Shown in pieces: positions 1-15,693 of a stretch of 15,693 bases of DNA. Each line of letters starts with the position of its first letter. The first letter of the stretch is position 1. A program made the position numbers and the translations under genes. This stretch comes from a virus (Duplodnaviria; Heunggongvirae; Uroviricota; Caudoviricetes), in the IMG/VR virus record IMGVR_UViG_2778261355_000012. One strand, given 5' to 3'. Under the pieces are notes generated by a model that had not been told where the DNA came from, ran no database searches, and was given only the letters and a program-made list of their open reading frames with translations.

Positions 1-537
1 TTACTCGTCCAGCAGAATCACTTTGCCGATATACGGCAGATGACGGTAACGCTGTGCGTAATCAATGCCGTAACCCACCACAAACTCATCCGGGATCGAG
101 AAACCGATAAATTCTACCGGGACGTTCACTTCACGACGGGACGGTTTATCCAGCAGCGTACAAATCGCCAGCGACTTCGGTTCGCGCAGGCTTAAGATCT
201 CACGCACTTTCGACAGTGTATTCCCCGAGTCGATGATATCTTCAACAATCAGCACGTCCTTGCCACGGATATCTTCATCCAGATCTTTGAGGATTTTCAC
301 ATCACGGGTGGTGGACATGCCGCTACCGTAGCTGGAGGCGGTCATAAAGTCGACTTCATGAGATACCTGAACTTCACGGCACAGGTCCGCCATAAACATA
401 AATGAGCCACGCAGCAGACCCACCAGCACCATATCGCTGCCGCTGTCTTTGTAACGCTCAGTAATCTGACGACCCAGTTCGGCGATACGCGCTTTAATCT
501 CCGCTTCGGGGATCATTACTTCTACAATATGTTTCAT
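1..537 (-). CDS. hpt: hypoxanthine phosphoribosyltransferase
   Basis: 178-aa product [35 protein letters not shown]...[14 protein letters not shown]...[10 protein letters not shown] matches E. coli Hpt over its full length from memory; includes the PRPP-binding [13 protein letters not shown] motif; ATG at 537-535, TAA at 3-1. Confidence 0.96.
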
Positions 538-1143
538 AATTCACATAACTCACTGATTTTTGTCAGTTAAAAACAAATTCACACGTAGCAATTTATCAAA
601 AGTGATACACCGAATGATATACGGATCGATACACAGCGCCACAATCTCAAAAAAGCACCAGCACAATTAGAAGGCCGCGAGTATACAACATCAGAAACAG
701 GAGAGGGCAAAGCACGTAATAATTTTCGTTTTTCACAAACGCAAAAATTTGGCGAGGCTGGCGGTCCCGGCAACATGAAGCTACAGAGATTTTGATCCCC
801 TGCATGGTGATGATGCCCATACAAGGCTATTTCATTTCAACGGAACCGGTATGACGAACATGATCGCACCTTCTCCCGAAAACGGTGCGACCTCCATAGA
901 GGAAATGCCTATTCAGATCCCCGGTGATTTTCACCATTCAGAATCTGGCGGGTGAGTTTCTCAATTTCCGCAGTTGGTGGAAATTAAACGAATACAGCGA
1001 GTTAGAACAAGGTGACTAATGGTCACTCTGTTGCTGCGTCACCATATTGATGATCCAGCCCTGTAGTCGCGCCACTTTTCCACCAATGGTGGAAAAGCCC
1101 ACAGCAGGCCGTCCAGCCTCCCCCAATGGGGGATTGTGGAAGA

Positions 1144-1468
1144 ATCAACGGGTTAGGCCTTACCAGCAAAAAAGCACATCAACTGTAACGGAAATCGTTA
1201 TGGTTGCTGGTGGGCTAAATCATCGTTATGGTGATGCAGCCATGTAGACGTTCCGGTCTCCTCAAATCGAGGTTTCCGAAAATATCAGTGAGTTAGCGAT
1301 TAAGCTGGCGAGTAATTAAACTGTGAAAATTTCGTAGTTTGTGACTATCTGAAAGATAGTCGGTTGATCCGGCCTCAGCCGTTGGCTGTTCCCGAAAATA
1401 TCAACGGGTTAGGCTGGTTTCCCCGATGTTCGCCGCTGGCGAATTTCGAAAATATCAACCAGTTACCG
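1144..1468. repeat. direct-repeat array: three full and one partial copy of a ~22-bp motif (consensus about CGAAAATATCAACGGGTTAGGC) at the junction between hpt and the island
   Basis: Read directly: atcaacgggttaggc (~1144-1158), ccgaaaatatcagtgagttagcg (~1276-1298), ccgaaaatatcaacgggttaggc (~1392-1414), tcgaaaatatcaaccagttaccg (~1446-1468). An 8-bp-stem palindrome GACTATCT-gaa-AGATAGTC sits between copies at ~1343-1361. Function (integrase arm sites vs packaging/TerS site) is inferred only. Confidence 0.7.
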
Positions 1469-1753
1469 CCGCAACCGCTCCGGCTTCTTCCAGTGGTAAG
1501 TTATTTTTTCCTTCTCCCGATACATCTCCACGCGGCGACGGTATGCCAGCATTTCCAGAACGCGGATCCGTATGTTGCGCATATCCACATCATTAAGCTG
1601 GATACCATTACGGCGCATCACTTCCGCTACAACACGCACATAATTTTCGGCGGTCACGCTGTCCGGCTGCGTGGCCTGTTCGTCATGCTGCTGGCTGATT
1701 CCGGTAACGCGGCGGATTATTTTTAGTAGTTCGGTTTCGCTCATTCTCGTCAT
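1463..1753 (-). CDS. hypothetical protein (96 aa), last gene of the packaging operon
   Basis: ORF overlaps the TerL stop by 4 nt (coupled translation); no motif recognised; its 3' end runs into the repeat array. Confidence 0.45.
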   Translation of the reverse strand: MTRMSETELLKIIRRVTGISQQHDEQATQPDSVTAENYVRVVAEVMRRNGIQLNDVDMRNIRIRVLEMLAYRRRVEMYREKEKITYHWKKPERLRR

Positions 1754-3420
1754 ACCCCATCAAACGCCGCAAGCCGCTCTTTGTGGCTGTCGCTCATATC
1801 AAATGCAAATTCCTCATGCTCTGCCTGGAATGTGCCAAACGCCATCAGCGCCGCAACGCTCGGGTCTATCTTGTTGGATGATTTTTTCTTGTTCGGCTTG
1901 ATATTGGCGTTCGCGTCACTCTGCATCACAACATTACTCATTGACCAGGCCAGCACCGGATCGCCACGATGCACAATCACCTTCCGGTTAACAAAAACTT
2001 CGAACGATTTCGCCGCCGGACTGAAACGAAGGTATGTTTGCGGGAACGGCTCCACCTCAAATCCTGCCCCCTGTAGCTGCGTCCTCAGGTGCGTGGCGTT
2101 CCATGTATCGAAGCCCACCAGCCTGATATTGAAATTCTCTGCATCCGCCATGATGTCATCACGGATACGGTCATAATCAATGCAGTCACCCGGTGTTGTG
2201 CGTATCCAGCCCGCCTTTACCCACTGGCGATAGATGGCGCGGTTTTTATTGGCGGGGTTCTGTAGCTGAAATTCCGGCAGATAGTGACGGGAAACCAGCA
2301 TAATCTTTTTACCGACCGGAAAGGCATAGCACACGCTGGAAATATCGCTGGTTGATGATAAGTCCAGCCCCGCGTAGCACTCCTGACCGTATAAATCCGC
2401 CTCCGCGAACGTTCCGGCGCACTCCGCCCATGCACCGTTACCCATCCACGGTGTAGCCCCCTGACACCAGATATTGAATCGCTTGGTGAGCATTTCCACC
2501 CACTGCGACGGAATACCCCGCGCTTTCTGGATGGTTGAGGCCAGTTTTTCACGATCGACGGAAACATCGATATTGGGATTCGCCTTTATCCACATCGCCG
2601 GCTCGTCAACCTCGCTTTCATCATCCAGCTCGTAAATCAGCACGAACATGGATTCGTTCACCTCTTCACCATCCAGTATCTGGCAGCAATAGTCATAGTG
2701 TTGTTTACAGGCTGAAACAACGTTGCTCCCCGATGTGGTGATGGCAAATAACAGCCCCTCCGGACGCGCCCCCATTCCCAGTTCAAGCGCGGAATAAACC
2801 CCGTTGTCAGGGTGCAGGTGATATTCATCCACAATGGCAAGACTCGGGTTTGTACCTTCAATGGTTGCCGCTTTTGCTGCCAGTGGCTTTAACAGGCTGT
2901 TGGTTTTCGGGTGTATCACCTTGTGTGTCTGAATATTTACCCGCTTTCGTAACGGTCGGGATAAAAGGCACATCTGACGCGCATCATCAAACACGATCCG
3001 CGCCTGATCACGACTCACGGCGGCGGTGTAAATATCCTGCTGCCCGTTTTCCATAACCAGAAACCAGTTAGCCAGGATAGCGGCGACCGTGGATTTGGCA
3101 TTTTTTCGCGGCACTTCAATGAATGCGCTGGTGTATTTGCGCCGTCCGGTGGCCTTAACCTTAAAGCCCAGGATGCACGCAAAGGCGAACTGCTGCCACG
3201 GCTCCAGCTCAATGGGGCTACCGCGCATTGCGCCTTTTACGTGCGGACACACCCTGGAAAAGGCAATAAACCGCTCCACGACCTCCGGATCGAACGTGTA
3301 AAGGGGGTTTTCAAGGTCAGAAAAATACCGTTTAACGGCCTGTTTCAGTCGTTTACAGGCCGTAATTTTGCCGTTTTTTACGCCTTCTGCGTACTCATGC
3401 CAGGCGGTCAAGCTCGTCAT
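1750..3420 (-). CDS. terminase large subunit (TerL)
   Basis: 556-aa product with the overall organisation of phage large terminases (N-terminal ATPase, C-terminal nuclease) by recollection; sits after TerS and HNH; overlaps TerS 3' end. Confidence 0.9.
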   Translation of the reverse strand: MTSLTAWHEYAEGVKNGKITACKRLKQAVKRYFSDLENPLYTFDPEVVERFIAFSRVCPHVKGAMRGSPIELEPWQQFAFACILGFKVKATGRRKYTSAFIEVPRKNAKSTVAAILANWFLVMENGQQDIYTAAVSRDQARIVFDDARQMCLLSRPLRKRVNIQTHKVIHPKTNSLLKPLAAKAATIEGTNPSLAIVDEYHLHPDNGVYSALELGMGARPEGLLFAITTSGSNVVSACKQHYDYCCQILDGEEVNESMFVLIYELDDESEVDEPAMWIKANPNIDVSVDREKLASTIQKARGIPSQWVEMLTKRFNIWCQGATPWMGNGAWAECAGTFAEADLYGQECYAGLDLSSTSDISSVCYAFPVGKKIMLVSRHYLPEFQLQNPANKNRAIYRQWVKAGWIRTTPGDCIDYDRIRDDIMADAENFNIRLVGFDTWNATHLRTQLQGAGFEVEPFPQTYLRFSPAAKSFEVFVNRKVIVHRGDPVLAWSMSNVVMQSDANANIKPNKKKSSNKIDPSVAALMAFGTFQAEHEEFAFDMSDSHKERLAAFDGV

Positions 3421-3751
3421 CTTCCTCTGTTTCCGGTGGATTTCTGCGGCGGCTTACCGGGTCAAAACCCAGCAAAGAAGCCATTTTGATCATTATTCTT
3501 TCAGCGTCAGCCTTTGCGCTCAGGGCGGGGTTTCTGCTCTCGCTGCCCTGACTGTTAACAATGCTGAACCCGCGCGTGGCAAGGTCTTCGACGGCTTTGC
3601 GGTATATGGAGTAGTTAACGCAATACAGCTCCAGATTGCTCCAGTCGGCGGGGGTAAGGTCTTCCCGTCCGGAAAGCTGGCGCGATTTTTCCTTCCACTG
3701 CCTGACCGCGATTTCATCCAGGTAAGCGGGGGCTTTTGGTGGTCTTGCCAT
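3395..3751 (-). CDS. terminase small subunit (P27-family-like TerS)
   Basis: Track ORF 3395..3892 trimmed to internal ATG at 3751 (MARPPKAPAYLDEIAVRQWKEK...), an N-terminus typical of P27-type small terminases; placed immediately upstream of TerL. Confidence 0.7.
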   Translation of the reverse strand: MARPPKAPAYLDEIAVRQWKEKSRQLSGREDLTPADWSNLELYCVNYSIYRKAVEDLATRGFSIVNSQGSESRNPALSAKADAERIMIKMASLLGFDPVSRRRNPPETEEDDELDRLA

Positions 3752-4039
3752 GTTCTTTTTTCGCCCAATTATTTTCAAAAAAATTCCCGTGCACAAAAAT
3801 TTGAGGAGGCGGTCGGTGTCCGGCAGGGACGGTTTCGTCCTGAAAACCACCCCCACCCCCTCTGACGGCCTCACCAGCGATTGCGACAACATTCCATGAT
3901 CTCGCGGTCACGGTCGGTTAATTGCTTCGCTGTGGTGCGTTCTGTGCGCCCTGTCCTGTTGGCTTTGTGCCCTGTCTCCTGTGTCTTCCATAAGTCACGC
4001 TGCCTTATCAGTCCACGTATCAGCCTGGTTTGCTCCTGT
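3752..4039. other. non-coding gap between HNH and TerS with a palindrome GGACGgtttCGTCC (~3827-3840) and a C/G-rich tract ccacccccaccccctc (~3847-3862); candidate cos/packaging site
   Basis: No credible ORF fills the gap (track ORFs here are antisense shadows). Position between HNH and TerS parallels cos placement in HK97-like phages. Inference only. Confidence 0.35.
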
Positions 4040-4480
4040 TCAGTCATCATCGCCATACATCCAGTCGTTACGGTGTGCTGCCCGTTCTTCCTGCTCGCGA
4101 TACATGCCCGCCTTACGGTTCGCTTTCGTGGCGGGATCTTCCCGTGTCGTCTTACGGTTGTGGCACGTCTGGCACAATGCCTGGTGGTTCCACTCAGGCC
4201 AGAAGAGAACATCACCGCCGCCATTGATGGGGATGATGTGATCCACCACAAGAGCTGGCGTATAAATCCCCTTAGCCAGACAACGCACGCATAACGGGTT
4301 TTTGCTCAGGTACAGGGCGCGGTATTTGTCCCACTGTCGGGAATACCCGCGCGCGCGGCGGTGTCCCCGTCTGGCATCCTCTGCACGCCATACAGCCCGT
4401 CTGTGCTCTTCACACTTGCCGGACTTCACGCGCTTATTACAGCCCGGCTCAGTGCATCGCCTTAATGGTTGCCACGGCAT
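4040..4480 (-). CDS. HNH endonuclease (packaging-associated)
   Basis: 146 aa with paired Cys motifs (CTEPGCNKR...C...C...CHNRK) and the His/Asn core (VVDHIIPINGGG...WNHQALCQTCHN) typical of HNH; start overlaps the connector stop (TGATG). Confidence 0.85.
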   Translation of the reverse strand: MPWQPLRRCTEPGCNKRVKSGKCEEHRRAVWRAEDARRGHRRARGYSRQWDKYRALYLSKNPLCVRCLAKGIYTPALVVDHIIPINGGGDVLFWPEWNHQALCQTCHNRKTTREDPATKANRKAGMYREQEERAAHRNDWMYGDDD

Positions 4481-4782
4481 CAGTACACCCCCACATCACG
4501 ATAAACCGACCAGAGCGCAGAAATAGCCATAGGCAGTTCAGACTGCTCCACTGGTGAAACTGCTTCCCTGTTCTCGTACAGGAAAGCGATGTACATCAGG
4601 CAACCAACACGCATTGCCGGGGTAAATTCCAGCCCGTCTTCAAAACGTTTCCCGATATGCTTCTGGCAGGCTTCCAGCGCCGCATCGGTATACATTTTCA
4701 GAAGTTCGCCTTCACCGGATAAATCATCATCAAGTCGAAGATGTGCCCTGACTTCATCAGGTGTAATTCTGGCTTCACTCAT
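4480..4782 (-). CDS. head-tail connector / gp6-like DNA-packaging protein
   Basis: Track ORF trimmed to ATG at 4782 preceded by GGGAG RBS; ~100 aa, MSEARITPDEVRAHLRLDDD... resembles gp6-type head-tail connector N-termini; overlaps portal 3' end. Confidence 0.6.
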   Translation of the reverse strand: MSEARITPDEVRAHLRLDDDLSGEGELLKMYTDAALEACQKHIGKRFEDGLEFTPAMRVGCLMYIAFLYENREAVSPVEQSELPMAISALWSVYRDVGVY

Positions 4783-5989
4783 CTTTTCTCCCTTTAATTT
4801 CCACAGTCTGTTTCCATGCCTGGCTGAACTCATCACCACCTTCACGCGGCGGCATACCCTCGCGTTCGCGAGCTTCGTTCGGATTCATGATCCCGCTCTT
4901 AATCCCTTTCTCATACGTGGCATAACGTTCGGTGGGTGTGGCGCGCAGTAAATCGGCTGAATCAAACTCAACCAGATAACGGGTACCAGGTACGGGAGAA
5001 GTCACCAGCAAAGCGGCCTTGATTTGCTGTTCGAAGTTCGCCAGCCACGGGCGCATTGTCATGGTCAGAAATGCGCGGCTCGCCTCACTGAAATTGCTGT
5101 AGGTGCTGTTGCTGTATTCCTGAAGAAAAATCGGCGACACGTTGAACATCCTGGCGATGTCTTCAATGGAGAAGCGACGGGAGGCCAGCCATTCCGCATC
5201 CTGGTTACTCATCCCCAGCTGCCTGTAATCCATGCCCCCTTCAAGGATTGGCGTTTTTCCGGCATTTTTCGCCCCCTTGTAGCGTTCCAGTGCGTCTAAT
5301 GCCTGTTTACCTTTCACGCCGTCCAGCCATTCACCTGACGTGATAATCCCTGCCGCCATCATGCCATCTTTCATAATGCTGGCTCCGTGACGCTGTTGAG
5401 CAAGGCCAAGCCCCAGCGCCTCACGGCAAATCGTGACGGGGGAACGCCCCAGAAAGCCATCATCCGAGGCATAGCGGAGATGCAGAACTTCTTCCTGTAA
5501 ATACGTGCGCACCGTTCCTGTACAGGGTTCGGTGATGGTATAGCGGTATTTGTGTGTGCCTGTGCGTTCCGGTACAACACACCCCGGCGCATAAGGATGA
5601 AGTGATTTTGGCTGCCCGTCCCGCCCCCACTCAATAACCGCATAGGCGTTACCGTTCAGCAGGCAGTGACGCATCATTGTGCGTTTAAACTGGTAAGGTG
5701 TCAGGCACGAATTAGGCTGCTCATTCAGCAGAATATCTACCGGGTGACTGTCCAGCCATTCCCGCGCCTCTCTGCCCTTATCATTGCGTACCAGATACAG
5801 GTAACACGGCATCGTGGCCACCGCCTCAGCGATGACAGAAACCGCGTTCATCACAGCAGGCAATGATTCAGCCGTCCCGGCAGAAACATATTCTCCGGAT
5901 CCGGTATTTGGTACACCAGACAACGCCAGAAAATCATCAATGGACAGGTTACGCAGATCGCTTTTTTTACGACTAAAAGGCCACCACAT
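4775..5989 (-). CDS. portal protein (HK97-family-like)
   Basis: Track ORF 4775..6079 trimmed to ATG at 5989 (MWWPFSRKK...), directly after the protease stop (TGA-T-ATG); ~400 aa with conserved portal stretches (FSIEDIARMFNVSPIFL, TMTMRPWLANFEQ). Confidence 0.88.
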   Translation of the reverse strand: MWWPFSRKKSDLRNLSIDDFLALSGVPNTGSGEYVSAGTAESLPAVMNAVSVIAEAVATMPCYLYLVRNDKGREAREWLDSHPVDILLNEQPNSCLTPYQFKRTMMRHCLLNGNAYAVIEWGRDGQPKSLHPYAPGCVVPERTGTHKYRYTITEPCTGTVRTYLQEEVLHLRYASDDGFLGRSPVTICREALGLGLAQQRHGASIMKDGMMAAGIITSGEWLDGVKGKQALDALERYKGAKNAGKTPILEGGMDYRQLGMSNQDAEWLASRRFSIEDIARMFNVSPIFLQEYSNSTYSNFSEASRAFLTMTMRPWLANFEQQIKAALLVTSPVPGTRYLVEFDSADLLRATPTERYATYEKGIKSGIMNPNEAREREGMPPREGGDEFSQAWKQTVEIKGRKDE

Positions 5990-5990
5990 A

Positions 5991-6551
5991 TCACAACCCC
6001 GCCAGTTCAGCCCAGCGATGACGATTATTTCCTGCCGGGCGTAATTCAGGGTACTGTGCAAACAACGAACGGTGGGCAATCTCCACGCCGGATTCGGGAT
6101 AAGCAGGCATCGATGTTATCGTGATTTCACGGAGTTCTGCGGCGGTTACAGTACGCAGATACGGTTTTTGCGCGATATTCCACTCCTCGCATAATGCGCG
6201 AAAGCCAAAGCTCATTCCTGTAATATCGCCACGTTCCACCAGCGTAAGCACATCTTTTCCAAGCTGGGTATTTGGCGGTGTCAGTTCAAAACGTAGCCCG
6301 GTGTTATCCTCAGTCAGTACCAGTGAGCCGGATTTGGTACGCCCCAGCAGTCGGGTATAGTCATGCTCATACAGACAGCGCACATCATTACCCGCCGCCA
6401 GATAGTCAGCAAAAGCCCCCGGCGTGAACTGTTCGCGAAACTCGTCCCAGATAATTTCTGAAAGGCTGTTCCAGCGAACGGCATAACCCACCAGTTTTTT
6501 ATCGCTGGCGGTCAGTTCAGATGTACGGATTTCAAAATCGGTGTTTTTCAT
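5991..6551 (-). CDS. prohead protease (HK97 / S78-family-like)
   Basis: Track ORF 5991..6776 trimmed to ATG at 6551 (MKNTDFEIRT...) with GGAG RBS ~9 nt upstream; the upstream extension overlaps the capsid gene. GYAVRWNS...FTPGAF...LYEHD pattern fits prohead proteases. Confidence 0.82.
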   Translation of the reverse strand: MKNTDFEIRTSELTASDKKLVGYAVRWNSLSEIIWDEFREQFTPGAFADYLAAGNDVRCLYEHDYTRLLGRTKSGSLVLTEDNTGLRFELTPPNTQLGKDVLTLVERGDITGMSFGFRALCEEWNIAQKPYLRTVTAAELREITITSMPAYPESGVEIAHRSLFAQYPELRPAGNNRHRWAELAGL

Positions 6552-6570
6552 CGGTGTACTCCATAAAGCT

Positions 6571-6592
6571 GAAAAAGGAGGCCGAAGCCCCC
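6571..6592 (-). terminator. hairpin plus U-tract between capsid and protease genes (attenuator or partial terminator)
   Basis: Minus-strand RNA GGGGGC-UUCG-GCCUCC (one G-U pair) followed by UUUUUC; the protease RBS lies just downstream. Confidence 0.4.
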
Positions 6593-6600
6593 TTTGCTCA

Positions 6601-7746
6601 TTACTTGCCAGCCTGAATTTCCAGAATCTTGATGGCGTTCGAATCCACCACACCACCGCCCAGATATTTCTGGGTATAGATGTTAATGAATCCAGGCTCG
6701 CTGAAATCCGGACGGGTACGCGTACCGGTTTTATGGTCAACGATGAAATAACCGCGCTTAAAGTCACCGACTGCAATCACACCGTCCGGCATAAATTCCA
6801 GATATTCAACCGGAAGCCCCAGCAGAGAATCAGGATCACCAGCCTGTAAACGATCGCGCCAGATGTAATCACCAGTGGCATTTTTCAGTTTTTGTGCGGA
6901 GGCGGCTGTATTTGAGTTCATCACCCATACAGCTTTTTTGCGGTACTTATTGCGCAGCGTAAATTTCAGGTCAATCAGCATATCGGCGCTGAGACTGCCA
7001 GTCACTTTTTTCGTCTGGAGCGTACCGAAAGGACGGGTTTTGTCATTATCCGTAGCGCGCGGGAAAGTCAGGAAACCTTTGGCTTTTTTCTCGCCATCAC
7101 CGGAAACCAGATCCGTTTCTTCGGTATCAACGAAAGTGTCGCCAATTTCAGAAGATAACCAGCCCATAATATCGACTTCGGAAAAATCGATAATTTCCTG
7201 AGTGGTTTTCGGGTAAGCGTAGATCGGATACAGGCGGATACTGACTTCATTCAGTTTTGGGGTTGCCGTCTGGTTACGTGCCGCACCTTCTTCGCCGTGT
7301 CCCACGACCGCACCCCCGGCAGAAACCAGTTGCTTAAATTCATTACTGTGAATGGTTTTAACAGTACAGATTTTACGCATCACCGACTCATCAGAAAGCT
7401 GACGCATAATTTCTCTGTTCAGTTCCGGGATAACCGTATAACCACCATCAGCCGGAACACTGCCGGACAGGTTGCGGGTTTCCCCGGTCAGAATGTAAGA
7501 GCGTAGCTCATTTTTGGTGATTTTATCTTCGACGGGAACACCAGGCTGGTTACGTTCTTCATCAGCCACAGACTCGAGGCGGGAAATTTCTGTGTCGAGG
7601 GAATCGGCTTTTGCACGCAGTTCATCAAACTGTTTGCCTTCGTCATCGGTTAGACTGCGGTTTTCACTGTCGGCTTTTTCCAGCAGGGATCGCATCTGGT
7701 TTTTCAGGGCGGTTTTTTGCTGGCGGAGTTCGATTAATTTCTTCAT
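6601..7746 (-). CDS. major capsid protein (HK97-fold)
   Basis: 381 aa; coiled-coil N-terminal ~100 aa (scaffold/delta-like) followed by a core typical of HK97-family capsids by recollection; followed directly by protease. Confidence 0.88.
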   Translation of the reverse strand: MKKLIELRQQKTALKNQMRSLLEKADSENRSLTDDEGKQFDELRAKADSLDTEISRLESVADEERNQPGVPVEDKITKNELRSYILTGETRNLSGSVPADGGYTVIPELNREIMRQLSDESVMRKICTVKTIHSNEFKQLVSAGGAVVGHGEEGAARNQTATPKLNEVSIRLYPIYAYPKTTQEIIDFSEVDIMGWLSSEIGDTFVDTEETDLVSGDGEKKAKGFLTFPRATDNDKTRPFGTLQTKKVTGSLSADMLIDLKFTLRNKYRKKAVWVMNSNTAASAQKLKNATGDYIWRDRLQAGDPDSLLGLPVEYLEFMPDGVIAVGDFKRGYFIVDHKTGTRTRPDFSEPGFINIYTQKYLGGGVVDSNAIKILEIQAGK

Positions 7747-7983
7747 GAAGGTTTTCTCGCATTGGTTAAGATTCAGGACGTGAAACCAACACGGGGGGAG
7801 CGCCGCCCGACACTCTCGGCATCTCGCAGATCAACCCGGCATCGCGCAGGGGGTCAGGCGGCATTGTGGCGGCTCACGTCTGAGTGCCACACGCCAACAT
7901 ATACATAAAAATCAGTATGTAAACATCAACCAGAATCACCGAACAACCTGGAACAACCACGAACAAATAATTTACAAAACCTG

Positions 7984-8010
7984 AAAAAAGACCCGGAAAA
8001 AATCCGGGCC
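7984..8010 (-). terminator. rho-independent terminator ending the replication operon
   Basis: Minus-strand hairpin CCCGGA-uuuuuu-UCCGGG followed by UCUUUUUU; sits just past the stop of the 82-aa ORF and ahead of the capsid promoter region. Confidence 0.7.
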
Positions 8011-8019
8011 TTTATCGCT

Positions 8020-8268
8020 TTATTGTTTCACTGGCTCCCGCATTCTGCGTCTTATTTTCCACAAATATTCGATCATCGCTTCCACCTGCTCACGGTTGGT
8101 TGCGAAAATTTCCCCGGTCAGTGAGCTACGCAGAAAATCATGATGATCCACAAAAAATAACGCATCGGAAGAAAGCAACCGACGATATTTTTTTGCTGTC
8201 GTGGTTTCCAGATCATCAAAACCATGAAGCTTTTTATGTTGCTGAACTTCTTCGAATGTCACTGGCAT
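8020..8268 (-). CDS. hypothetical protein (82 aa)
   Basis: Start overlaps the 3' end of the FinO-like gene by 10 nt; followed by the terminator; no motif recognised. Confidence 0.45.
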   Translation of the reverse strand: MPVTFEEVQQHKKLHGFDDLETTTAKKYRRLLSSDALFFVDHHDFLRSSLTGEIFATNREQVEAMIEYLWKIRRRMREPVKQ

Positions 8269-8789
8269 GTATCCCCCTTTGCTGCCCGGCGCTGGCGCTT
8301 GTGCTTCTCATTCAGCACCATCAGCCGTGTTTCTGCCTCCTGCTGTTCCTGTGGTGTCACTTCCCCACATGGCTGGCCTTTCAGGTCGTAACGTGCGCCA
8401 CCAGCTATCAGGGCGCGGTAATAGCGCGGAGACTGCGCATAGGATGCCAGCGTCGCACGTAATACCCCCGACCCGAATGCCAGCCCCCTGACGGCGATAT
8501 CCTGCATCAGGTCGTCGAATATCCCCACCTTAAGCGGCTTCGGTGCTTTATGGCTGAATAAGTCAGGCCACATCTCAGTGAGGCGGTTAACGCGTCGGCG
8601 GTTTTTGCGCTGCCTTTTGGTCATATGCTGCCACGGTGTCGCCCCTGTGGGCTTCTGCTGTGCGTTCTGATTGCCGGGTATCACTTTATGCGCCGATGTG
8701 GTTTTATCCTGCTCTTGCGCCGCCTGCGTCGTTTTCTGCGGCGTGCCGTAAATGCCTTTCGGCTTCCGGTTAATGGTCAGCGTTGTCAT
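8259..8789 (-). CDS. ProQ/FinO-domain RNA-binding protein
   Basis: Residues ~70-155 (WPDLFSHKAPKPLKVGIFDDLMQDIA...VLRATLASYAQSPRYYRALIAGGARYDLKGQPCGEVTPQEQ) align by eye with the E. coli ProQ N-terminal domain (FPHCF...PLKIGIFQDL...[35 protein letters not shown]); basic, low-complexity N-terminus. Confidence 0.8.
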   Translation of the reverse strand: MTTLTINRKPKGIYGTPQKTTQAAQEQDKTTSAHKVIPGNQNAQQKPTGATPWQHMTKRQRKNRRRVNRLTEMWPDLFSHKAPKPLKVGIFDDLMQDIAVRGLAFGSGVLRATLASYAQSPRYYRALIAGGARYDLKGQPCGEVTPQEQQEAETRLMVLNEKHKRQRRAAKGDTCQ

Positions 8790-8825
8790 GCCTTCCCCTG
8801 TAATTACTCTGTTCGCTGTTGTGAA

Positions 8826-9251
8826 TTAAAACGGTATGTTATCCCCGTACGGGTCATCGTGCTGGCTTGTCTGTTGTTTTGCCCTGTTCAGTGCGTCAGT
8901 GGCCTGGCCCTGTTGACCTTTTTTGCCGCCCGGTCGCGCCGTTCGCGCACTGATTACGCTGTCTGCAATAACCTGCCAGCCCCGCTGCGTTTCCCCGTTC
9001 TGGCCTGTCCACTGGCTCACCTGCATGTTACCCGCCACGCTCACCAGTTCGCCTTTGTGGTGTTTTGCCAGTGCGTCGGCCTGTCTGCCAAACGCCAGGA
9101 CAGATAACCACATCGTCGCCGTTCCGTCATCTGCCTGGCTGCACGGCAGGGGAACCGCCATACTCGCCATCGCCATTTGTGTCCCTTTGCTGGTGGTCTT
9201 TAACTGCGGGTCAGCCACCAGCCGCCCGTAAGCCGCTATCTGTGCTGTCAT
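8826..9251 (-). CDS. single-stranded DNA-binding protein (SSB)
   Basis: 141 aa with OB-fold SSB pattern (GRLVADPQL...MWLSVLAFGRQA...KGELVSVAGNMQVSQWTGQNGETQRGWQV), Gly/Gln-rich linker and acidic tail ending DNIPF (canonical DDDIPF). Confidence 0.8.
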   Translation of the reverse strand: MTAQIAAYGRLVADPQLKTTSKGTQMAMASMAVPLPCSQADDGTATMWLSVLAFGRQADALAKHHKGELVSVAGNMQVSQWTGQNGETQRGWQVIADSVISARTARPGGKKGQQGQATDALNRAKQQTSQHDDPYGDNIPF

Positions 9252-9493
9252 GCTGTCTGCTCTCCGGTTTTAACGTTGATGGTTGTCACCTGTTCCGCTT
9301 CGGCAATCTCCCGTTCTGTCAGCGTGGCAAAGTTTGCTGCCGCCGTGGTCATGAATGCGCTTATCAGTTCGGGATGTGCTTTTGCGTACCCTTCTCCCGC
9401 GTTGCGGTCGATGATTTTTATCGCCACCCTCAGCCAGTGTTCTGTCAAATCAAGGGCGTGAGATTGTGGTTTTTTTGCGTGCTTCGTTGTCAC
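9248..9493 (-). CDS. hypothetical protein (81 aa, GTG start)
   Basis: GTG start with GAGGT RBS ~8 nt upstream; stop overlaps SSB start; no motif recognised. Confidence 0.45.
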   Translation of the reverse strand: MTTKHAKKPQSHALDLTEHWLRVAIKIIDRNAGEGYAKAHPELISAFMTTAAANFATLTEREIAEAEQVTTINVKTGEQTA

Positions 9494-9540
9494 AGGCTTT
9501 ACCTCACAGCAATAAAATAAAATTTTTGCATTTTAACCCT

Positions 9541-9770
9541 TCACCTGTTCACCTTTTGAGATTTTCCCTTTTTATTCATAATGTTAAGGGGTGAACAGTT
9601 TCACAAAAACTATTCACCAACTGTTCACCACTGTTCACCCTTAAAGCTCAATAAATAATCAAAAAGGTGAACAGTGAATAGTTTGGTGAACAGTTCACAA
9701 ATAACTGTTCACCCTATAATGTACTGATATAAAAGATATTTATCACAGGGTGAACAGTGGTGAACAGTTA
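9541..9770. repeat. iteron field: at least 9 perfect copies of TGTTCACC / GGTGAACA in both orientations plus variants, with an adjacent AT-rich tract; candidate replication origin
   Basis: Read directly: perfect octamers at ~9546, 9590, 9622, 9632, 9666, 9685, 9706, 9749, 9759; AT-rich tataatgtactgatataaaagatatttatc at ~9714-9743. The octamer is the one I recall as the phage P4 alpha-binding type I iteron. Confidence 0.8.
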
Positions 9771-9780
9771 TTCCATAAGT

Positions 9781-11595
9781 TTAATTTTTGCTGTCGTCAT
9801 TTGTGACCGATGCACATGATGGCATCCAGTCTTCTGAATCCTCTGTCAGTGTCACATTTGAACGCAAACCGTGCTTCGTTTTCCGTTTTATATACTCCCT
9901 GCCATATTCCGCCATTGCCCCCGGCATATCTTTACCGAAGCGCGTCAGTGTTACAGGTTTACCGAATCCGTGTGCCCTCATATATGCCAGATAGGCGTGA
10001 TAAAGATACCTGCGCGGACTGAACGGAATAATTTCGGCATTACCCACTAACAGACCATCACACATTACCGACGACATGAGATAGCCACAGAAGTCCACCA
10101 GCGAATCGCCCTCGCGTTTTATCACCAGAGCTTCTTCTGATTTCTGCTGCTCATACAGCAGGCGTTTAGCTTCGTCCTGGTCAGAAAAACGAGTAAGCAG
10201 ATGGCGAATCACAACCGCCAGCTCTCCTTCTATTTTTTCTGCCAGCATGGGGTCGCGCTCGTTCTCCGGTACAACCTCCGAAAAATTGAATATCACCCGA
10301 CGACGTGAGATCCCCCCGCTGCGGTCACTGAATGACATGGCGTTATTGTTCACCGCCAGCACGACCGCCTGAATGCGTGTTGAGTAGGGGGCTTTATGCT
10401 TCGGGTCGATTGCCACCTTGTCACCGCCTGTAATGGCCTTAATTCCTGCGCCATCACCAGCGTAGCGGGTCATATCCGGCATGATAATCAGCGAAAAGCC
10501 AACCACTAACGCGCGTTCCCTTGCATCTTCCAGCGCCTTCATGCTTGCCGATACTGTGTTGGCCTTACCCGCCAGCATGGTGCAAATCTCCGCCATCACG
10601 CTTTTACCACTTCCCCCTGGACCTGTTACCTCAATGAATAACTGCCAGTCGTACCGGTTCGCCAGCACCATGAATAATGCAGCCAGCACGCGATCCGTCT
10701 TGCGGTCATTCTCTGCCACCGAGCGGCGTAACCACTTCCAGAAATTCGGCGCATGTGTTGCCAGCGTTTCCCCCTCTGCTGGTGGGCTGAAAGGTAATTC
10801 ACTGGCAATTAACAACCAGTCGTTTTTGTTATGCTCCCGAAAATTACCTGTTCTGGTATCAAATACCCCGTTACTGAATCCAATCAGGTTACGGGCTGTA
10901 TTCCCCATTACAGGCAAACTTAACTTCATGGTATCGACCGCCGATTTAATGGCGTTCTGCGAATAGCTGATCTCCGCATCAATGAAAATCTGCGCCATAG
11001 CACGCTGTAACTCTTTATCCTGAATCGGCTCCCATACAACGCCGTTGTAATGGTGAACAGTGTCAGAGTCGGCATGAATCGCCAGTTCACCGCCATAATG
11101 TGCCAGGAGAACTTCGCCGCGCTGGCTTGCTCCCATCTGGTTAAGCGCCAGTGGTGCGGCGCTGTCTTCTGTTTTTTTCTTAACAGGAAGCTGAATCACC
11201 AGACCATCAGAAAGATTCTGGCGCTCACGGGCCAGATATTCGCGCCAGTTCTGCACCTCCTGGCCGTGCATACCCTCAGGATAAAAATTTGCATCCTGTA
11301 CGCCTGCCGCCGCCAGCTTCTGACCAATCGCCTTTATCATTACTGGCGCAAGATATCCGGCCCTGAATATGCGCACGGATTTTCTGCCTTCCGGCACAAT
11401 TTGCAGCTTATCCAGTTCGGATAACTGCTGCTCCCCAAGCCACACAGGAGGCTCATTATCTCCGGCCATACGCGCGTCATGTTCCTGCCATTGTTTTGCG
11501 TGTGACCAGGCATCACTACCCGCAAAAATAATGACTTCTGTTTCTTTGTGTTTTATGCCGCGTAACTGCTGTTTTACGTTCGGTGCCAGTTTCAT
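9781..11595 (-). CDS. replication initiator with primase/helicase-type NTPase domain (P4 alpha-like / D5-family)
   Basis: 604 aa; Walker A GPGGSGKS mid-protein; iteron field lies immediately 3' of the gene; start overlaps the upstream 95-aa ORF (ATGA). Confidence 0.8.
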   Translation of the reverse strand: MKLAPNVKQQLRGIKHKETEVIIFAGSDAWSHAKQWQEHDARMAGDNEPPVWLGEQQLSELDKLQIVPEGRKSVRIFRAGYLAPVMIKAIGQKLAAAGVQDANFYPEGMHGQEVQNWREYLARERQNLSDGLVIQLPVKKKTEDSAAPLALNQMGASQRGEVLLAHYGGELAIHADSDTVHHYNGVVWEPIQDKELQRAMAQIFIDAEISYSQNAIKSAVDTMKLSLPVMGNTARNLIGFSNGVFDTRTGNFREHNKNDWLLIASELPFSPPAEGETLATHAPNFWKWLRRSVAENDRKTDRVLAALFMVLANRYDWQLFIEVTGPGGSGKSVMAEICTMLAGKANTVSASMKALEDARERALVVGFSLIIMPDMTRYAGDGAGIKAITGGDKVAIDPKHKAPYSTRIQAVVLAVNNNAMSFSDRSGGISRRRVIFNFSEVVPENERDPMLAEKIEGELAVVIRHLLTRFSDQDEAKRLLYEQQKSEEALVIKREGDSLVDFCGYLMSSVMCDGLLVGNAEIIPFSPRRYLYHAYLAYMRAHGFGKPVTLTRFGKDMPGAMAEYGREYIKRKTKHGLRSNVTLTEDSEDWMPSCASVTNDDSKN

Positions 11596-11879
11596 TTTTT
11601 ACCCCCTGCGACCAGCATTTCACGAATTTTGCGGATATGACTTGCTGCACGTTTCTGATTTACGGCTTTACGATGGCCCACCAGCGTGAAATCACGCCGG
11701 AACTGATAAACAGGCATCACGCAGTCATATTCGTAGCCATCACGGCGGTAAGTGATGCGCCGTTCTGCCACGTCTTTTATCGTTACCGTGCCGCCATAGT
11801 TATCCCGGAAAATATCGCCGGGGCGGATTTCAGGCCGAGCGGGGCCGCTGGCAGTAAAGCCAGAAATTTTCTGTTTCAT
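11592..11879 (-). CDS. hypothetical protein (95 aa)
   Basis: Translationally coupled to the replication gene; no motif recognised. Confidence 0.5.
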   Translation of the reverse strand: MKQKISGFTASGPARPEIRPGDIFRDNYGGTVTIKDVAERRITYRRDGYEYDCVMPVYQFRRDFTLVGHRKAVNQKRAASHIRKIREMLVAGGKK

Positions 11880-11884
11880 GGTTT

Positions 11885-12112
11885 TTATTCCGCGTTTATT
11901 TTTTTATCGTGAATTTCGATCGCTTTATTTAATTCGACGATTACCGTATCGAGTAATGAAATAAACGCACCAGCAAGATTAGATTCACGCTCATCTTCCG
12001 GCGCATCACTTAAACCATCAAGCCAGATAAGAAATATTTGCCTCAAACATTCACTGTTAGTCAGTGCGTTTTCTGCATGGCTCATTGATTTAAAATAACG
12101 GTCATCATGCAT
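11885..12112 (-). CDS. hypothetical protein (75 aa)
   Basis: ATG overlaps the stop of the upstream 67-aa ORF (ATGCATGA); acidic; no motif recognised. Confidence 0.45.
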   Translation of the reverse strand: MHDDRYFKSMSHAENALTNSECLRQIFLIWLDGLSDAPEDERESNLAGAFISLLDTVIVELNKAIEIHDKKINAE

Positions 12113-12308
12113 GGCGCACCCCCTGACGAATACGGGCGGCGAATACCATCACGCAGTCATCAGGAGATTGCTGGCGTGCTTCCTGTTCGCTGGTGGCCTC
12201 AATGGTAATCACGCGCGGTTGTGCCGTGCTCAGGGCGATAAAACGCCAGATGTATTTATTCAGGTTGTACGAGTCCCGCCCTTGCGGGTGTCTGGTATAA
12301 TTTCTCAT
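12105..12308 (-). CDS. hypothetical protein (67 aa), first gene of the replication-side operon
   Basis: Track ORF 12105..13013 trimmed to ATG at 12308 with GAGGT RBS 5 nt upstream; the long N-terminal extension is Ser/Cys-rich and antisense to plus-strand genes. Confidence 0.45.
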   Translation of the reverse strand: MRNYTRHPQGRDSYNLNKYIWRFIALSTAQPRVITIEATSEQEARQQSPDDCVMVFAARIRQGVRHA

Positions 12309-12389
12309 AGCTACCTCGATACTCTCGTTATCGTTGGTGGTTAGACGCCCTGCATGTGTTGCGAGCACTGCGGGGCGTTGCTCTTTTAG

Positions 12390-12435
12390 GTGTATTTCAC
12401 CTTTGCTTTTTAATTTACTCACTGGTGAAATACAC
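12390..12435. promoter_or_regulatory. perfect 12-bp inverted repeat GTGTATTTCACC-N22-GGTGAAATACAC in a divergent promoter region (candidate operator)
   Basis: Read directly; lies in the ~190-bp gap between the minus-strand 67-aa gene start and the plus-strand 59-aa gene start; TATACT -10-like hexamer downstream at ~12466. Confidence 0.5.
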
Positions 12436-12501
12436 TTCAAGCCTTTTTTTATCATTTTTTTTGCGTATACTGACATACACCAATTTTTAGGAGATCCAGA
12501 A

Positions 12502-12681
12502 ATGGCAACTGGTGCAAAGAACGCAAAATCACAAATGACAACTGTCAGAATCCCACATGAAGTAATGGATGATATTGAGCAACTTAAAGAACCTGGCGAA
12601 AGTACCGCTGGTTTTTTAGTTACTGCCGCAAAAGGCGAGATCAAACGCCGCCAGCGTCGCAAGGCCAAAGAGCAGGAGTAA
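12502..12681 (+). CDS. small putative DNA-binding protein (59 aa, possibly ribbon-helix-helix-like)
   Basis: Track ORF 12334..12681 trimmed to ATG at 12502 with AGGAG RBS ~9 nt upstream; MATGAKNAKSQMTTVRIPHEVMDDIEQLKEPGE... then a basic tail; the RHH assignment is a weak guess. Confidence 0.5.
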   Translation: MATGAKNAKSQMTTVRIPHEVMDDIEQLKEPGESTAGFLVTAAKGEIKRRQRRKAKEQE

Positions 12682-12738
12682 CCATCACCAGCGCCGTGGT
12701 GTGAGTAACTACGGCGCATTGCTATGCAGGACAACACA

Positions 12739-12912
12739 ATGACCGATAAAGAATTGACCAAAACATTATCACCGGCACGGAAAAGACGGCGCAGAAAGAT
12801 AGAGCATGAATCAGAAAGATTCGCGCCATGTGCTTTTGCCCTTGAGCAATTCCTTAAAGAGCACAGGAAAAAGCTCTCGTTGCAAACCTTGGAACGAACC
12901 AAATCTGACTGA
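12739..12912 (+). CDS. hypothetical basic protein (57 aa; alternative start 12724)
   Basis: Follows the 59-aa gene on the same strand and is followed by a strong terminator; arginine-rich (ARKRRRRK). Confidence 0.4.
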   Translation: MTDKELTKTLSPARKRRRRKIEHESERFAPCAFALEQFLKEHRKKLSLQTLERTKSD

Positions 12913-12976
12913 TCACATTGCCCACCAGCCAGCAAATCACTATGATGTTCGGGCTTATGTTTAGTGTTTTCCCATT

Positions 12977-13444: not shown

Positions 13445-14374
13445 TTACTGCGATCTTTCACTCGGCCTCTTATGAGCATTACTTAAAATTGCTGCTATTT
13501 TTGTTTCTGTTTTTATTGGCAATTCACTATTAATGAACCAATCAGGTCTGGCGATCAACTCACGAGCCCAAGCAGAATAGTTAATCGTTCCATCGTTTTT
13601 TCTGCAGGTCTCATTAAAAGTATTTTGTTGCTCTTCTTTAAAACGCATAGCAACCATTAAAATTTGCTCTCGATTTCTTGCATGTCTTTCAGCAGAATGG
13701 TGCACAATTTCATTGCCATTCATCTTGTGAGGTTCTACAGATTCAAAATTATCTGTTAGCGTAAAATAATCGCCACCACAGTCAAGAAGTCGCCTTATAT
13801 CATGAGCGGTAATCCACAAGTCATTTATAGAAATATTATTCTTTAATATTTGATCGTCTTCTTCATCATAATCACTATCTTCACCAACCATTAAAAGTTG
13901 TACGGCAGGATTATCAGTTTCTGGATGACACGGGGTTAATTCAAAACCACTTAGGGAATACTCTCCAAAATTTTGTAGCTCTTCCAGCCCACTCCAAAGA
14001 CGCCACAATCCATAAGCCCTACCAATAGAGCTAAAGCATCCGTTTTCTGAGTCTTGACCGAATAAAGGCGCGTGTATAGTTTCATCTGTCTCCTCATTAT
14101 AATTGTATCTGAAAAGATGAAATCTGGAGTATTCCGTAATATTGTTCCCCATCAGTGATGTGGTCGATTTTGCATTTCTGGTATCAAACCAAGCAGTTGC
14201 AGACTCGCTATCAGTATTCATATATAAAACAGCGCGAGCATCAAATAAATTTAGGCATAAAGCTATTTTTTTAGTAACACCTAAATTCACGAGATCGCTA
14301 ATCTCGCAACCCAGCAATCTTGATGCACGTTCAATGTTGCAATACTGAAAAGGAATTTTAATGTCGTTAGCCAT
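13445..14374 (-). CDS. hypothetical protein (309 aa), AT-rich cargo gene between int and alpA
   Basis: Long clean ORF with GAGGG RBS 6 nt upstream; markedly lower GC than flanking genes (by eye); acidic central stretch EDSDYDEEDDQ; no domain recognised. Confidence 0.7.
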   Translation of the reverse strand: MANDIKIPFQYCNIERASRLLGCEISDLVNLGVTKKIALCLNLFDARAVLYMNTDSESATAWFDTRNAKSTTSLMGNNITEYSRFHLFRYNYNEETDETIHAPLFGQDSENGCFSSIGRAYGLWRLWSGLEELQNFGEYSLSGFELTPCHPETDNPAVQLLMVGEDSDYDEEDDQILKNNISINDLWITAHDIRRLLDCGGDYFTLTDNFESVEPHKMNGNEIVHHSAERHARNREQILMVAMRFKEEQQNTFNETCRKNDGTINYSAWARELIARPDWFINSELPIKTETKIAAILSNAHKRPSERSQ

Positions 14375-14472
14375 TGCGCTACCCTCAACGCCCTAAATAC
14401 TTTACGAGCCAGGCGGGTAGGGTTTCCCGCTTTTCGGTTGGCCGACCTATGCCCGTAATATCAGTTTAACCT

Positions 14473-15693
14473 CTATATCGATACAGGTAACAGCACCACA
14501 TTTTGATGATTACCCGCCAGAAGTTCTAATCGGCCATACCACTTATTCAACGCATCCATTTTCTCAGGTAAGTACAGACTACGGTTATAAATAGCCATCA
14601 CCCCCGGCAATGCATGACCAAGTAAAAGCTCTACAATATGTGGCGCAATACCCATATTATTTAAACCTGTAGAAAATGTTCTGCGCAAATCGTGAAGCGT
14701 CCATGGCTCATTATGATGAAAATCTTTGTATAGCCTACGCCCTTTAAGCGAAGCAGCCTGGCGGGAACGTTCTTCACCCAGTACAATTCCTGTTTTTCCC
14801 GTTTCCTTTTTTAGATCCTCAATCCATGGGCGAATGCCCTCTGGAATTGGACGAACTATTTTTTCACGAGTTTTGCTGTGTTCTTTAGGAACCGTCCAAA
14901 TCCATGACTGAAAATCCCATTCACTCCACCGGGATAATCTTACTTCCATTGTTCGCGCCCCAAACAGCACAAGCAACTTAAGCAGACGAAGATAATAAAA
15001 TTGCTGTTCATCGCTATAAGTACACCGCCATACATCAGCTAACTCACTATCTGACAGCACCCTATCACGCTGCCCCGATGGTTGCCCTACATCCTGGATT
15101 GTCATAAAAGCCAGGGCATCACATGAGGCATAACGGCGAACCTTGCAGAATCTTAAGGCCTGTTTACAAATCTGGAACATTCGCCCGGCAGTGATTGGCC
15201 TGGACTGGTTAATTTCATCAAAACATGCCACCCAGTGACGCGTTTCACACCGGGATAACGGATAGTGGCCAAGACGCGGATAAATATGCTTACGTAATTG
15301 CGCCCGCACCAGTTCCTCGTCACTACGTTTTTTTCTTGCGTAATGAATTAGCCAATATTCAAGGGCATCATGGACAGTTACGGGGTTAAGGTTTTCTTCT
15401 GCGCTAAGTTCTAATTCAAGTCGTGGATTCAGCCCGTCCGCATACCATTTTCGGCATAGTTCCCTCTTCTCCCTAGCCATTTTCAACGACATGTCAGGGT
15501 AACGCCCAAGAACAATGCGCTCTAACTTGCTCCCACGCCCACCAAGACGATAAGAGAAAACCCAACTAATGCATCCCATCATGGATACTTTGATGCTTAA
15601 TCCTTCACCATCCGCAATGGTAATTACTGAATCCCGCTTTACGCCGAGAAGCGATCTTAATTTTTTATCACTCAGTTTGTTTGTGCCAGCCAC
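14473..15693 (-). CDS. int: tyrosine integrase, P4-type (5' end at window edge)
   Basis: N-terminal P4-integrase-type arm-binding pattern (KLSDKKLRSLL...DGEGLSIKV...WVFSYRLGG...LGRYPDMSLKMAREKR); C-terminal catalytic signature HDLRRTF...LLGH...AIYNRSLY. First codon is GTG exactly at the edge, so it is either a GTG start or slightly truncated. Confidence 0.92.
   Translation of the reverse strand: MAGTNKLSDKKLRSLLGVKRDSVITIADGEGLSIKVSMMGCISWVFSYRLGGRGSKLERIVLGRYPDMSLKMAREKRELCRKWYADGLNPRLELELSAEENLNPVTVHDALEYWLIHYARKKRSDEELVRAQLRKHIYPRLGHYPLSRCETRHWVACFDEINQSRPITAGRMFQICKQALRFCKVRRYASCDALAFMTIQDVGQPSGQRDRVLSDSELADVWRCTYSDEQQFYYLRLLKLLVLFGARTMEVRLSRWSEWDFQSWIWTVPKEHSKTREKIVRPIPEGIRPWIEDLKKETGKTGIVLGEERSRQAASLKGRRLYKDFHHNEPWTLHDLRRTFSTGLNNMGIAPHIVELLLGHALPGVMAIYNRSLYLPEKMDALNKWYGRLELLAGNHQNVVLLPVSI

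Follow-up and report, generated by a model that had tools for sequence, protein, structure and literature searches.

The IMG/VR virus record IMGVR_UViG_2778261355_000012, a stretch of 15,693 nt referred to below as the window, raises the question of what a dense cluster of repeats and palindromes does in the non-coding DNA behind the last gene of an integrated element. The window comprises Escherichia coli hpt followed by a capsid-forming phage-inducible chromosomal island (PICI) of approximately 15.35 kb, and E. coli ATCC 43886 is identical to it (100%). Between hpt and orf93, the last gene of the island, lies a non-coding stretch of 924 bp (539–1462), which harbours the array. The original prediction had placed these repeats at the island junction and read them as integrase arm sites with sites for the integration host factor (IHF), or as a recognition site for the small terminase (TerS). 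The present analysis finds an array in which palindromes alternate with predicted IHF sites, well inside the island and apart from its att, cos and origin regions. Such an array appears undescribed within the PICI literature searched; its components are familiar.

Anatomy of the repeat units

All four copies of the motif, given originally as approximately 22 bp long, are present beyond chance on the plus strand, at 1138–1158, 1278–1298, 1394–1414 and 1448–1468. With up to three mismatches allowed, the 14-nt core has five matches in the window, four of them in the array, against 1.07 expected, and none of 200 shuffles reaches five; the full 21-mer has two matches at the same threshold, against 0.00 expected. 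The unit delimited by the repeat finder is longer than had been stated, at approximately 47 nt, and joins a palindrome to the motif. Each unit is built from a 13-bp palindrome (6+1+6), a gap of 4–5 bp, a short A-tract and the IHF consensus, with a repeat length of 47–54 bp.

Unit 1 (1112–1158, +) contains the palindrome (T)CCCCCA-A-TGGGGG(A) and the consensus AATCAACGGGTTA. The palindrome seen earlier near 1120–1134 is located at 1120–1132, reads CCCCCAATGGGGG (CCCCCA-A-TGGGGG) and belongs to this unit. Unit 2 (1252–1298, +) has the palindrome CCTC-AAATC-GAGG and the near-consensus TATCAGTGAGTTA; unit 3 (1368–1414, +) has CAGCC-GTT-GGCTG and the consensus TATCAACGGGTTA; and unit 4 (1422–1468, +) has TTCGCC-GCT-GGCGAA and the consensus TATCAACCAGTTA. 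The TTA of unit 4 is the complement of the orf93 stop codon, and the step from unit 4 to unit 3 is 54 bp. A decayed fifth unit (965–1005, +) retains the imperfect palindrome TTTCCGCAGTTGGTGGAAA followed by the degenerate motif GAATACAGCGAGTTAG.

The sequence GAAAATATCAACGGGTTAGGC contains tATCAAcgggTTA, which fits WATCAANNNNTTR, the classical IHF consensus. All three perfect matches to this consensus in the 15.7-kb window (1143, 1399 and 1453) fall in units 1, 3 and 4 on one strand, and unit 2 (1283) differs by a single mismatch, ATCAG; directly 5′ of each match in the array stands GAAAA(T). Twenty-seven unique units were collected from the window, E. coli genomes and 80 IMG/VR loci found via orf93, with at most five mismatches to the 21-mer, a threshold that inflates overall conservation and favours no particular positions. 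Within this collection, G1, A4, A7-T8-C9-A10 and T16-T17-A18 are invariant, position 6 is only A or T, and positions 12–15 (NNNN) and the 3′ flank are variable. Such a profile is expected if the IHF consensus itself is conserved, and the motif is predicted, from its sequence, to be an IHF-binding site. The earlier proposal of IHF sites beside integrase arms is thereby half retained: the perfect consensus (predicted sites) stands, and the arm-site role does not.

The palindromes are held in a constant position, and their symmetry outlasts their sequence. Among 25 unique units, the distance from the dyad axis to the first base of the motif downstream is 12 bp in nearly all cases and 13 bp in two. 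Across the six symmetric pairs of these units, 92.7% of cells are complementary against 68.3% after shuffling (none of 500 shuffles reaches the observed value), all six pairs have changed on both sides, and the covariation score is 0.636, compared with 0.206 for shuffled and at most 0.22 for slid partners. At least seven different arm sequences occupy the same register, among them CCTCAA/TTGAGG, CCCCCA/TGGGGG, CAGCC/GGCTG, TTCGCC/GGCGAA, TTCCACAG/CTGTGGAA, CCTGCA/TGCAGG and ACGCCA/TGGCGT. This upkeep could reflect selection for a hairpin or a dimeric partner, or template-switch correction of quasi-palindromes, a known mutational process.

Distribution and probable growth of the array

Partial matches to the 924-bp region occur in 1131 of 5426 complete E. 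coli genomes, and the pair of units 3 and 4 occurs in 400 of them, at one to three places each, always in the chromosome and always adjoining an orf93 homologue. In these genomes, the module is situated directly downstream of the orf93 homologue, at the int-distal end of the PICI, and is common to classical lambda-cos PICIs and capsid-forming PICIs. EcCICFT073 at phoQ has three units, a lambda-cos PICI at clpS has four and an O157:H7 capsid-forming PICI has six; the module is also present in the lambda-cos PICI of O157 SS17 and in a capsid-forming PICI at phoQ. The copy number ranges from 0 to 6 without relation to the terminase type, and the first unit usually overlaps the orf93 stop codon.

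Two loci place units behind other genes: a low-GC contig (L120) has a single unit after a GP3_package small-terminase gene, and in another locus (L170) the unit or units follow a perC gene. No array was found in a Klebsiella capsid-forming PICI or behind the short orf93 homologues of Klebsiella and Enterobacter islands, and a scan of genome contigs with orf93 returned one Shigella locus only. In the phage collection, the 924-bp region has no match except a 44-nt Rha gene fragment.

Internal units are flanked on their 3′ side by GTTACCGCGCCGAC, a sequence similar to GTTACCGCCGCAAC at the end of orf93. This similarity points to growth by tandem duplication of a segment of approximately 54 bp. 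Homology blocks between islands end at the unit edges, forming mosaic joints.

A possible accessory role at the end of the late operon

We tentatively favour, with somewhat less than even confidence, a predicted extragenic array of IHF sites and palindromes that plays an accessory and dispensable part where the late (packaging) operon ends; modulation of read-through (towards att and int or into the host flank), of local topology or of recombination would all fall under this reading. It builds on the observed anatomy, conservation pattern, covariation and distribution of the units and on the exclusion of att, cos and ori, and it expects no role in integration, DNA cutting or replication initiation. 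It is also in keeping with a terminator-like hairpin that stands beyond the array in the O157 capsid-forming PICI and would make the array part of a 3′ untranslated region there. In the proposed mechanism, the duplicated 54-bp segment would have spanned the orf93 stop codon, and copies would be gained and lost via recombination between units. Each unit would bind IHF and bend the DNA sharply. With a spacing of 54 bp, approximately five helical turns, successive bends would be roughly in phase and could fold the last 0.4 kb or so of the island into a compact nucleoprotein segment, while the palindromes, symmetric despite drift, would provide either elements able to form hairpins or sites recognised by a dimeric partner.

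A more specific form of this mechanism seems rather unlikely to us. According to it, a satellite-specific cis element recruits host IHF and folds the int-distal end, either controlling the end of replicating or injected DNA, together with the correctly oriented Chi site that nearly always comes after the array, or, in the circular island, gating read-through from the packaging operon that would cross attP and enter int.

Several observations weigh against the favoured reading. The compensatory changes could stem from template-switch correction and not from selection, and the palindromes are short, so they would be weak as RNA hairpins or cruciforms. The A-tract of the array directly adjoins WATCAA, whereas that of the lambda H′ site lies approximately one helical turn upstream, and IHF binding is a prediction from the consensus. 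In L120 and L170 the units are co-directional with the upstream gene, leaving their polarity relative to gene and att unfixed, which fits an architectural role at the DNA level and is uninformative on the process served. Some near-identical islands have no copies, and any role is therefore dispensable or accessory. RIP/BIME-1 elements, the repetitive IHF-binding palindromic elements of E. coli in which repetitive extragenic palindromes (REPs) flank an IHF site, offer the nearest known architecture, in build and position, as an analogy and not as membership: by eye the array palindromes are not REP-like, and the array units are confined to PICI ends (one to three places per genome, in 400 of 5426) and not dispersed.

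It is also unlikely, in our estimate, that the array is neutral or selfish repeat DNA, that is, functionless and duplication-prone remnants in a decaying accessory region, with symmetry maintained by template-switch correction and an IHF consensus that is ancestral. Such DNA would fit a presence and a copy number (0–6) that vary among close relatives, the decayed copy at 965–1005, the Rha/Ant gene fragment contained in the region and the unrelated repeats that other islands have at this place (GTGAC x4 in L017). Against it, the variation among the 27 unique units spares exactly the positions of the IHF consensus and concentrates in NNNN and the flanks, and the register of the palindromes is held across at least seven arm types, including that of the low-GC contig of another lineage.

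Possible stem-loops in the transcript

An RNA-level element is improbable. On this account, the palindromes would form stem-loops in the late-operon 3′ untranslated region or in an antisense RNA and would terminate transcription weakly, slow decay or bind a protein, such as the ProQ/FinO protein of the island, and the IHF match would be incidental. The compensatory stem changes and the location immediately after a stop codon suit it, as does the folding of both strands, which is better than that of shuffles (z = −5.3 and −7.0). Each plus-strand hairpin is followed by UU(U)CC, and the island has a ProQ/FinO gene. However, the counts of G-T and A-C mismatches have no strand bias, so no RNA strand is identified, the stems are just 4–6 bp long, and the orientation to the upstream gene is unfixed. 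A terminator scan of 500–1800 gave three weak matches against 1.4 expected, none of them a unit palindrome, with tails of just TT(T)CC. Moreover, no ProQ gene is annotated in the classical PICIs that have the array, and the IHF-specific pattern of conservation is left unexplained.

A promoter scan of 500–1800 found none, and the Rfam covariance models have no match in 539–1470. Coding of the array was also considered and rejected: the units are in no consistent frame, and unit 2 contains a stop codon. The open reading frame (ORF) at 1047–1247 (+) has no Pfam, PHROG or tblastn match.

The junction and the attachment site

The array is not at the island junction, where it had first been placed. 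Comparison of an empty site (L002) with both island ends in an island-carrying locus (L001) sets the island/chromosome junction at 538/539, and the repeats start 540–930 bp inside the island. Island-free E. coli genomes, nearly all of the 5426 complete ones, match the window at 1–538 only; at this island-free hpt locus, named beforehand as the place to look, the repeats are absent, and they are therefore island DNA. The att core is 18 bp long, TTCTACA(A/G)TATGTTTCAT, with copies at window 521–538, at L001 31871–31888 and in the empty site. The copy in the window (attL, TTCTACAATATGTTTCAT) overlaps codons 1–6 of hpt, and the one A/G difference between copies falls in codon 4, changing Thr4 to Ile upon integration.

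That the array belongs to attP and supplies the intasome with distal arm sites for Int and with IHF sites is very unlikely. In the excised circle it would lie upstream of attP and int, IHF is the classical accessory factor of attP, and unit 2 shares 15 of 16 positions of its core, inverted, with an IHF-like site near the att core. That site (AATCAGTGAGTTA, 546–558, −, with ATCAG in place of ATCAA) is only 8 bp from the core, whereas the array lies 600–930 bp away, at a distance that differs in other islands. The island probably has its own Int arm sites, as judged from the repeats: CAAAAGTGATACACC and two degenerate copies occupy 597–633 (+), 60–95 bp from the core, and the 15-mer CAAAAGTGATACACC occurs twice on the int side (L001 31713–31739). 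A short repeat on both arms, approximately 50–200 bp from the core, is thus found for GTGATACAC and not for the array motif, which was looked for at the int end and is absent there. The array is, furthermore, shared by islands at hpt, phoQ and clpS, which differ in integrase, att site and arm repeats, and other islands lack it, so the arm-site proposal is not borne out.

Integration also replaces the whole promoter region of hpt, the upstream sequence of which is then supplied by the island. This island-borne sequence retains a TTAAAAACAAAT(T)CAC block that is also found upstream of native hpt (window 521–620). Between the late operon and hpt there is no convincing terminator, and induction might drive hpt.

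Packaging and replication sites

A packaging signal, whether TerS recognition, a cosB-like site or an accessory terminase site, is highly doubtful as well. The array is near the packaging genes and approximately 350 bp from cos1 in classical PICIs, the single unit of L120 follows a small-terminase gene, and lambda cosB has an IHF site. However, EcCICFT073-type PICIs use the lambda/phi80 terminase (PMC6739421, PMC9026076) and have the array too. They contain an exact lambda cosN approximately 65 bp upstream of the orf93 start and another beyond the rpp gene, in agreement with the published cos1/cos2 work (PMC6092414, PMC6739421), and the cosB side of their cos1 points away from orf93 and the array. 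PICI cosB has a single R site and no IHF site in the Feiss analysis (PMC9026076), and HK97-type TerS binds one 15-bp site 15–29 bp from the cut (bioRxiv 10.1101/2023.07.17.549218). The array also occurs in islands without the terminase genes of these capsid-forming PICIs, and capsid-forming PICIs with TerL approximately 92% and TerS approximately 88% identical have 0, 1 or 4 units. Copy number is thus uncoupled from the terminase genes, and the TerS site proposed for the array is not supported.

In the PICI literature searched, the cos of capsid-forming PICIs is unplaced. The linear record of the related Klebsiella capsid-forming PICI vB_KppS-Ant (LR881103) ends between the small ORF after the HNH gene and terS, corresponding to window positions of approximately 3835–3845 beside a G-rich tract; taken as physical ends, which is an assumption, these are at the usual place of HK97-type phages. 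The cos region of the island is likely at approximately 3752–3870 (−), with GGGGGTGGGGGTGGTTTTCAGGAC|GAAACC between the small ORF and terS. Within the window, near matches to lambda cosN are at chance level only.

It is barely credible that the array serves as a replication origin or, in the manner of P4 crr, as a second region needed in cis for replication. The primase of the island is of the P4 family, P4 itself relies on two iteron regions and the palindromes at 1077–1095 resemble inverted DnaA-box-like sequences, but the nine TGTTCACC iterons stand elsewhere, with none in the array, and the origin of Gram-negative PICIs has been mapped 3′ of pri-rep (PMC6092414). At 9546–9766, immediately behind the primase gene, the iterons surround an AT-rich core in both orientations, and two further TGTTCACC copies lie inside that gene. 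We take TGTTCACC to be the P4 type I iteron sequence. The segment 9546–9766 has a GC content of 0.37, the lowest of the island, and is the island's replication origin. Rfam gives spurious microRNA matches in this iteron region.

Mimicry of a CRISPR leader or repeat, an integron attC, an oriT, a sigma-54 enhancer and matS/dif/Ter sites were set aside on general knowledge, each misfitting in order, orientation or sequence.

Chi sites and other elements of the non-coding stretch

Chi (GCTGGTGG) occurs 12 times in the 15.7 kb (420–12929) against 0.52 expected; 11 of these 12 copies, on both strands, belong to the island. Of 48 distinct related loci, 44 have a Chi site 200–750 bp downstream of orf93, in a constant orientation that RecBCD entering from the orf93/cos side would recognise. 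The annotated island genes include no RecBCD inhibitor, most small ORFs being unannotated hypotheticals, and because of this the abundance of Chi looks like protection of linear or rolling-circle DNA.

One Chi site (1206–1213, +) stands within the array between two copies of the 11-bp direct repeat noted earlier, ATCGTTATGGT, which are found at 1194–1204 and 1222–1232 (+). The palindrome with an 8-bp stem, GACTATCT-GAA-AGATAGTC (1343–1361), is likewise present; it occupies the spacer between units 2 and 3, forms an 8-bp helix in the folds of both strands, and is replaced in related islands by a different palindrome, GCGCAAAATTGCGC, at the equivalent place.

The perfect palindrome first reported at 1078–1096 extends over 1075–1097 with 11-nt arms, CTTTTCCACCA-A-TGGTGGAAAAG, and lies inside a fragment of a Rha/Ant-family gene. 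This 44-nt fragment (approximately 1074–1117/1121) is 93% identical in nucleotides to the antirepressor (ant) gene of Salmonella phage SSU5 and reads TFPPMVEKPTAGRPA in the same frame as the SSU5 gene. Its FPPMVEK codons make a perfect 19-bp palindrome, which the intact SSU5 ant gene also has and which is odd for a coding sequence; a diverged copy of the fragment is present at 961–1010. The fragment prompted the idea that the region derives from the right end of phi80 (rha-to-cosQ), which was rejected, phi80 being without homologues of orf93 or of the units. A literature search on rha and IHF gave nothing usable.

Some PICIs without the IHF array have another kind of repeat right after orf93. 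At L017 3284–3420, GTGAC occurs four times with a 10-bp period, a possible protein-binding repeat, followed by the canonical terminator GACGT-gacca-ACGTC-TTTTTT.

Gene content of the island

The island is inserted between hpt (1–537, −), the chromosomal flank, and gcd, and all of its genes are on the minus strand. The integrase gene (14473–15693) is followed by an HTH (helix-turn-helix) regulator, an Icd-like gene, the P4-family primase (9781–11595) and an SSB gene, then by a ProQ/FinO-domain gene (8259–8789; Pfam E = 4.6e-24). ProQ/FinO proteins are a family of RNA chaperones, and the PICI literature searched mentions no role for this one. Next come the genes of the major capsid protein, prohead protease, portal and connector, the HNH endonuclease (4040–4480), a small ORF, the P27-family small terminase (3395–3751), the large terminase (1750–3411) and finally orf93 (1463–1744), which adjoins the array. 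The same content and order characterise the capsid-forming PICIs, with EcCIEDL933 as the prototype (bioRxiv 10.1101/2022.09.08.507074). The sole significant Rfam match in the whole window is the int-alpA RNA motif (RF02996) at 14391–14457 (−), which scores 55 bits (gathering score 35.8) and occupies the gap that separates the integrase gene from the next gene downstream, the ORF at 13445–14374.

The orf93 product (93 aa) has no Pfam match and belongs to phrog_1561, which is without an assigned function. Its AlphaFold model consists of three helices (pLDDT 74), and a Foldseek search of this model against the PDB gave nothing with E below 0.69. A short form of 62 aa (L088 4598–4786; L089 and L093 2501–2692) has the C-terminal Y(H/Q)W(K/R)KPER in common with it. 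In PICIs of Escherichia, Shigella, Klebsiella and Enterobacter, both classical and capsid-forming, a member of this family is the final gene ahead of att; Salmonella, Raoultella and Atlantibacter have homologues as well.

Significance and comparison with known systems

In Enterobacteriaceae, PICIs are major vehicles of gene transfer. Dissection of these islands has covered the int, alpA, pri-rep/ori, cos/rpp and capsid modules and not the stretch from the last gene to att, 0.3–1.3 kb in the islands examined. This stretch follows a conserved grammar of orf93, IHF/palindrome units, Chi and attP arm, which recurs in two PICI lineages whose packaging systems are unrelated. EcCICFT073, one of the two model islands, has the array, and so does a capsid-forming PICI of O157:H7 that may resemble EcCIEDL933, which opens the role of host IHF in satellites to deletion analysis. 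If control of DNA ends or gating of read-through proved true, the array would represent a new class of PICI control site, overlooked so far for lack of annotation in this region; if it were inert, it would be a clean natural example of palindromes that stay symmetric while their sequence changes. In either case, the map of the island is corrected with respect to its exact junction, arm sites, origin and likely cos position.

Among known systems, the arms of lambda-type attP (H1, H2 and H′ with Int arm-type sites) resemble the array in placing an IHF consensus near the att site of an integrating element. The array differs from them in its distance from the core, which is too great and not constant; its motif is absent from the int arm, and the island has arm repeats and a core-proximal IHF-like site of its own. 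Lambda cosB (R3-I1-R2-R1) and PICI cos1 (cosQ-cosN-R3-rpp) likewise combine an IHF site and short protein-binding repeats near packaging genes, but the cos sites of these islands are elsewhere, and the array accompanies two unrelated terminase systems while being absent from some islands with the same terminase. Centromere-like arrays, such as P1 parS with its IHF site and F sopC with 43-bp repeats that each contain an inverted repeat, share with it the tandem units of approximately 50 bp with a dyad and IHF as an architectural partner. However, the dyads of the array are unconserved in sequence, so one sequence-specific protein could not bind them all, and the island is without partition genes. 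Compared with RIP/BIME-1, the palindromes of the array are shorter, 13 bp against approximately 35 bp, and vary between copies. The likeness to RIP/BIME-1 lies in the alternation of palindromes with the IHF consensus, in the extragenic position after the last gene of an operon, and in units that are clustered, variable in copy number and dispensable.

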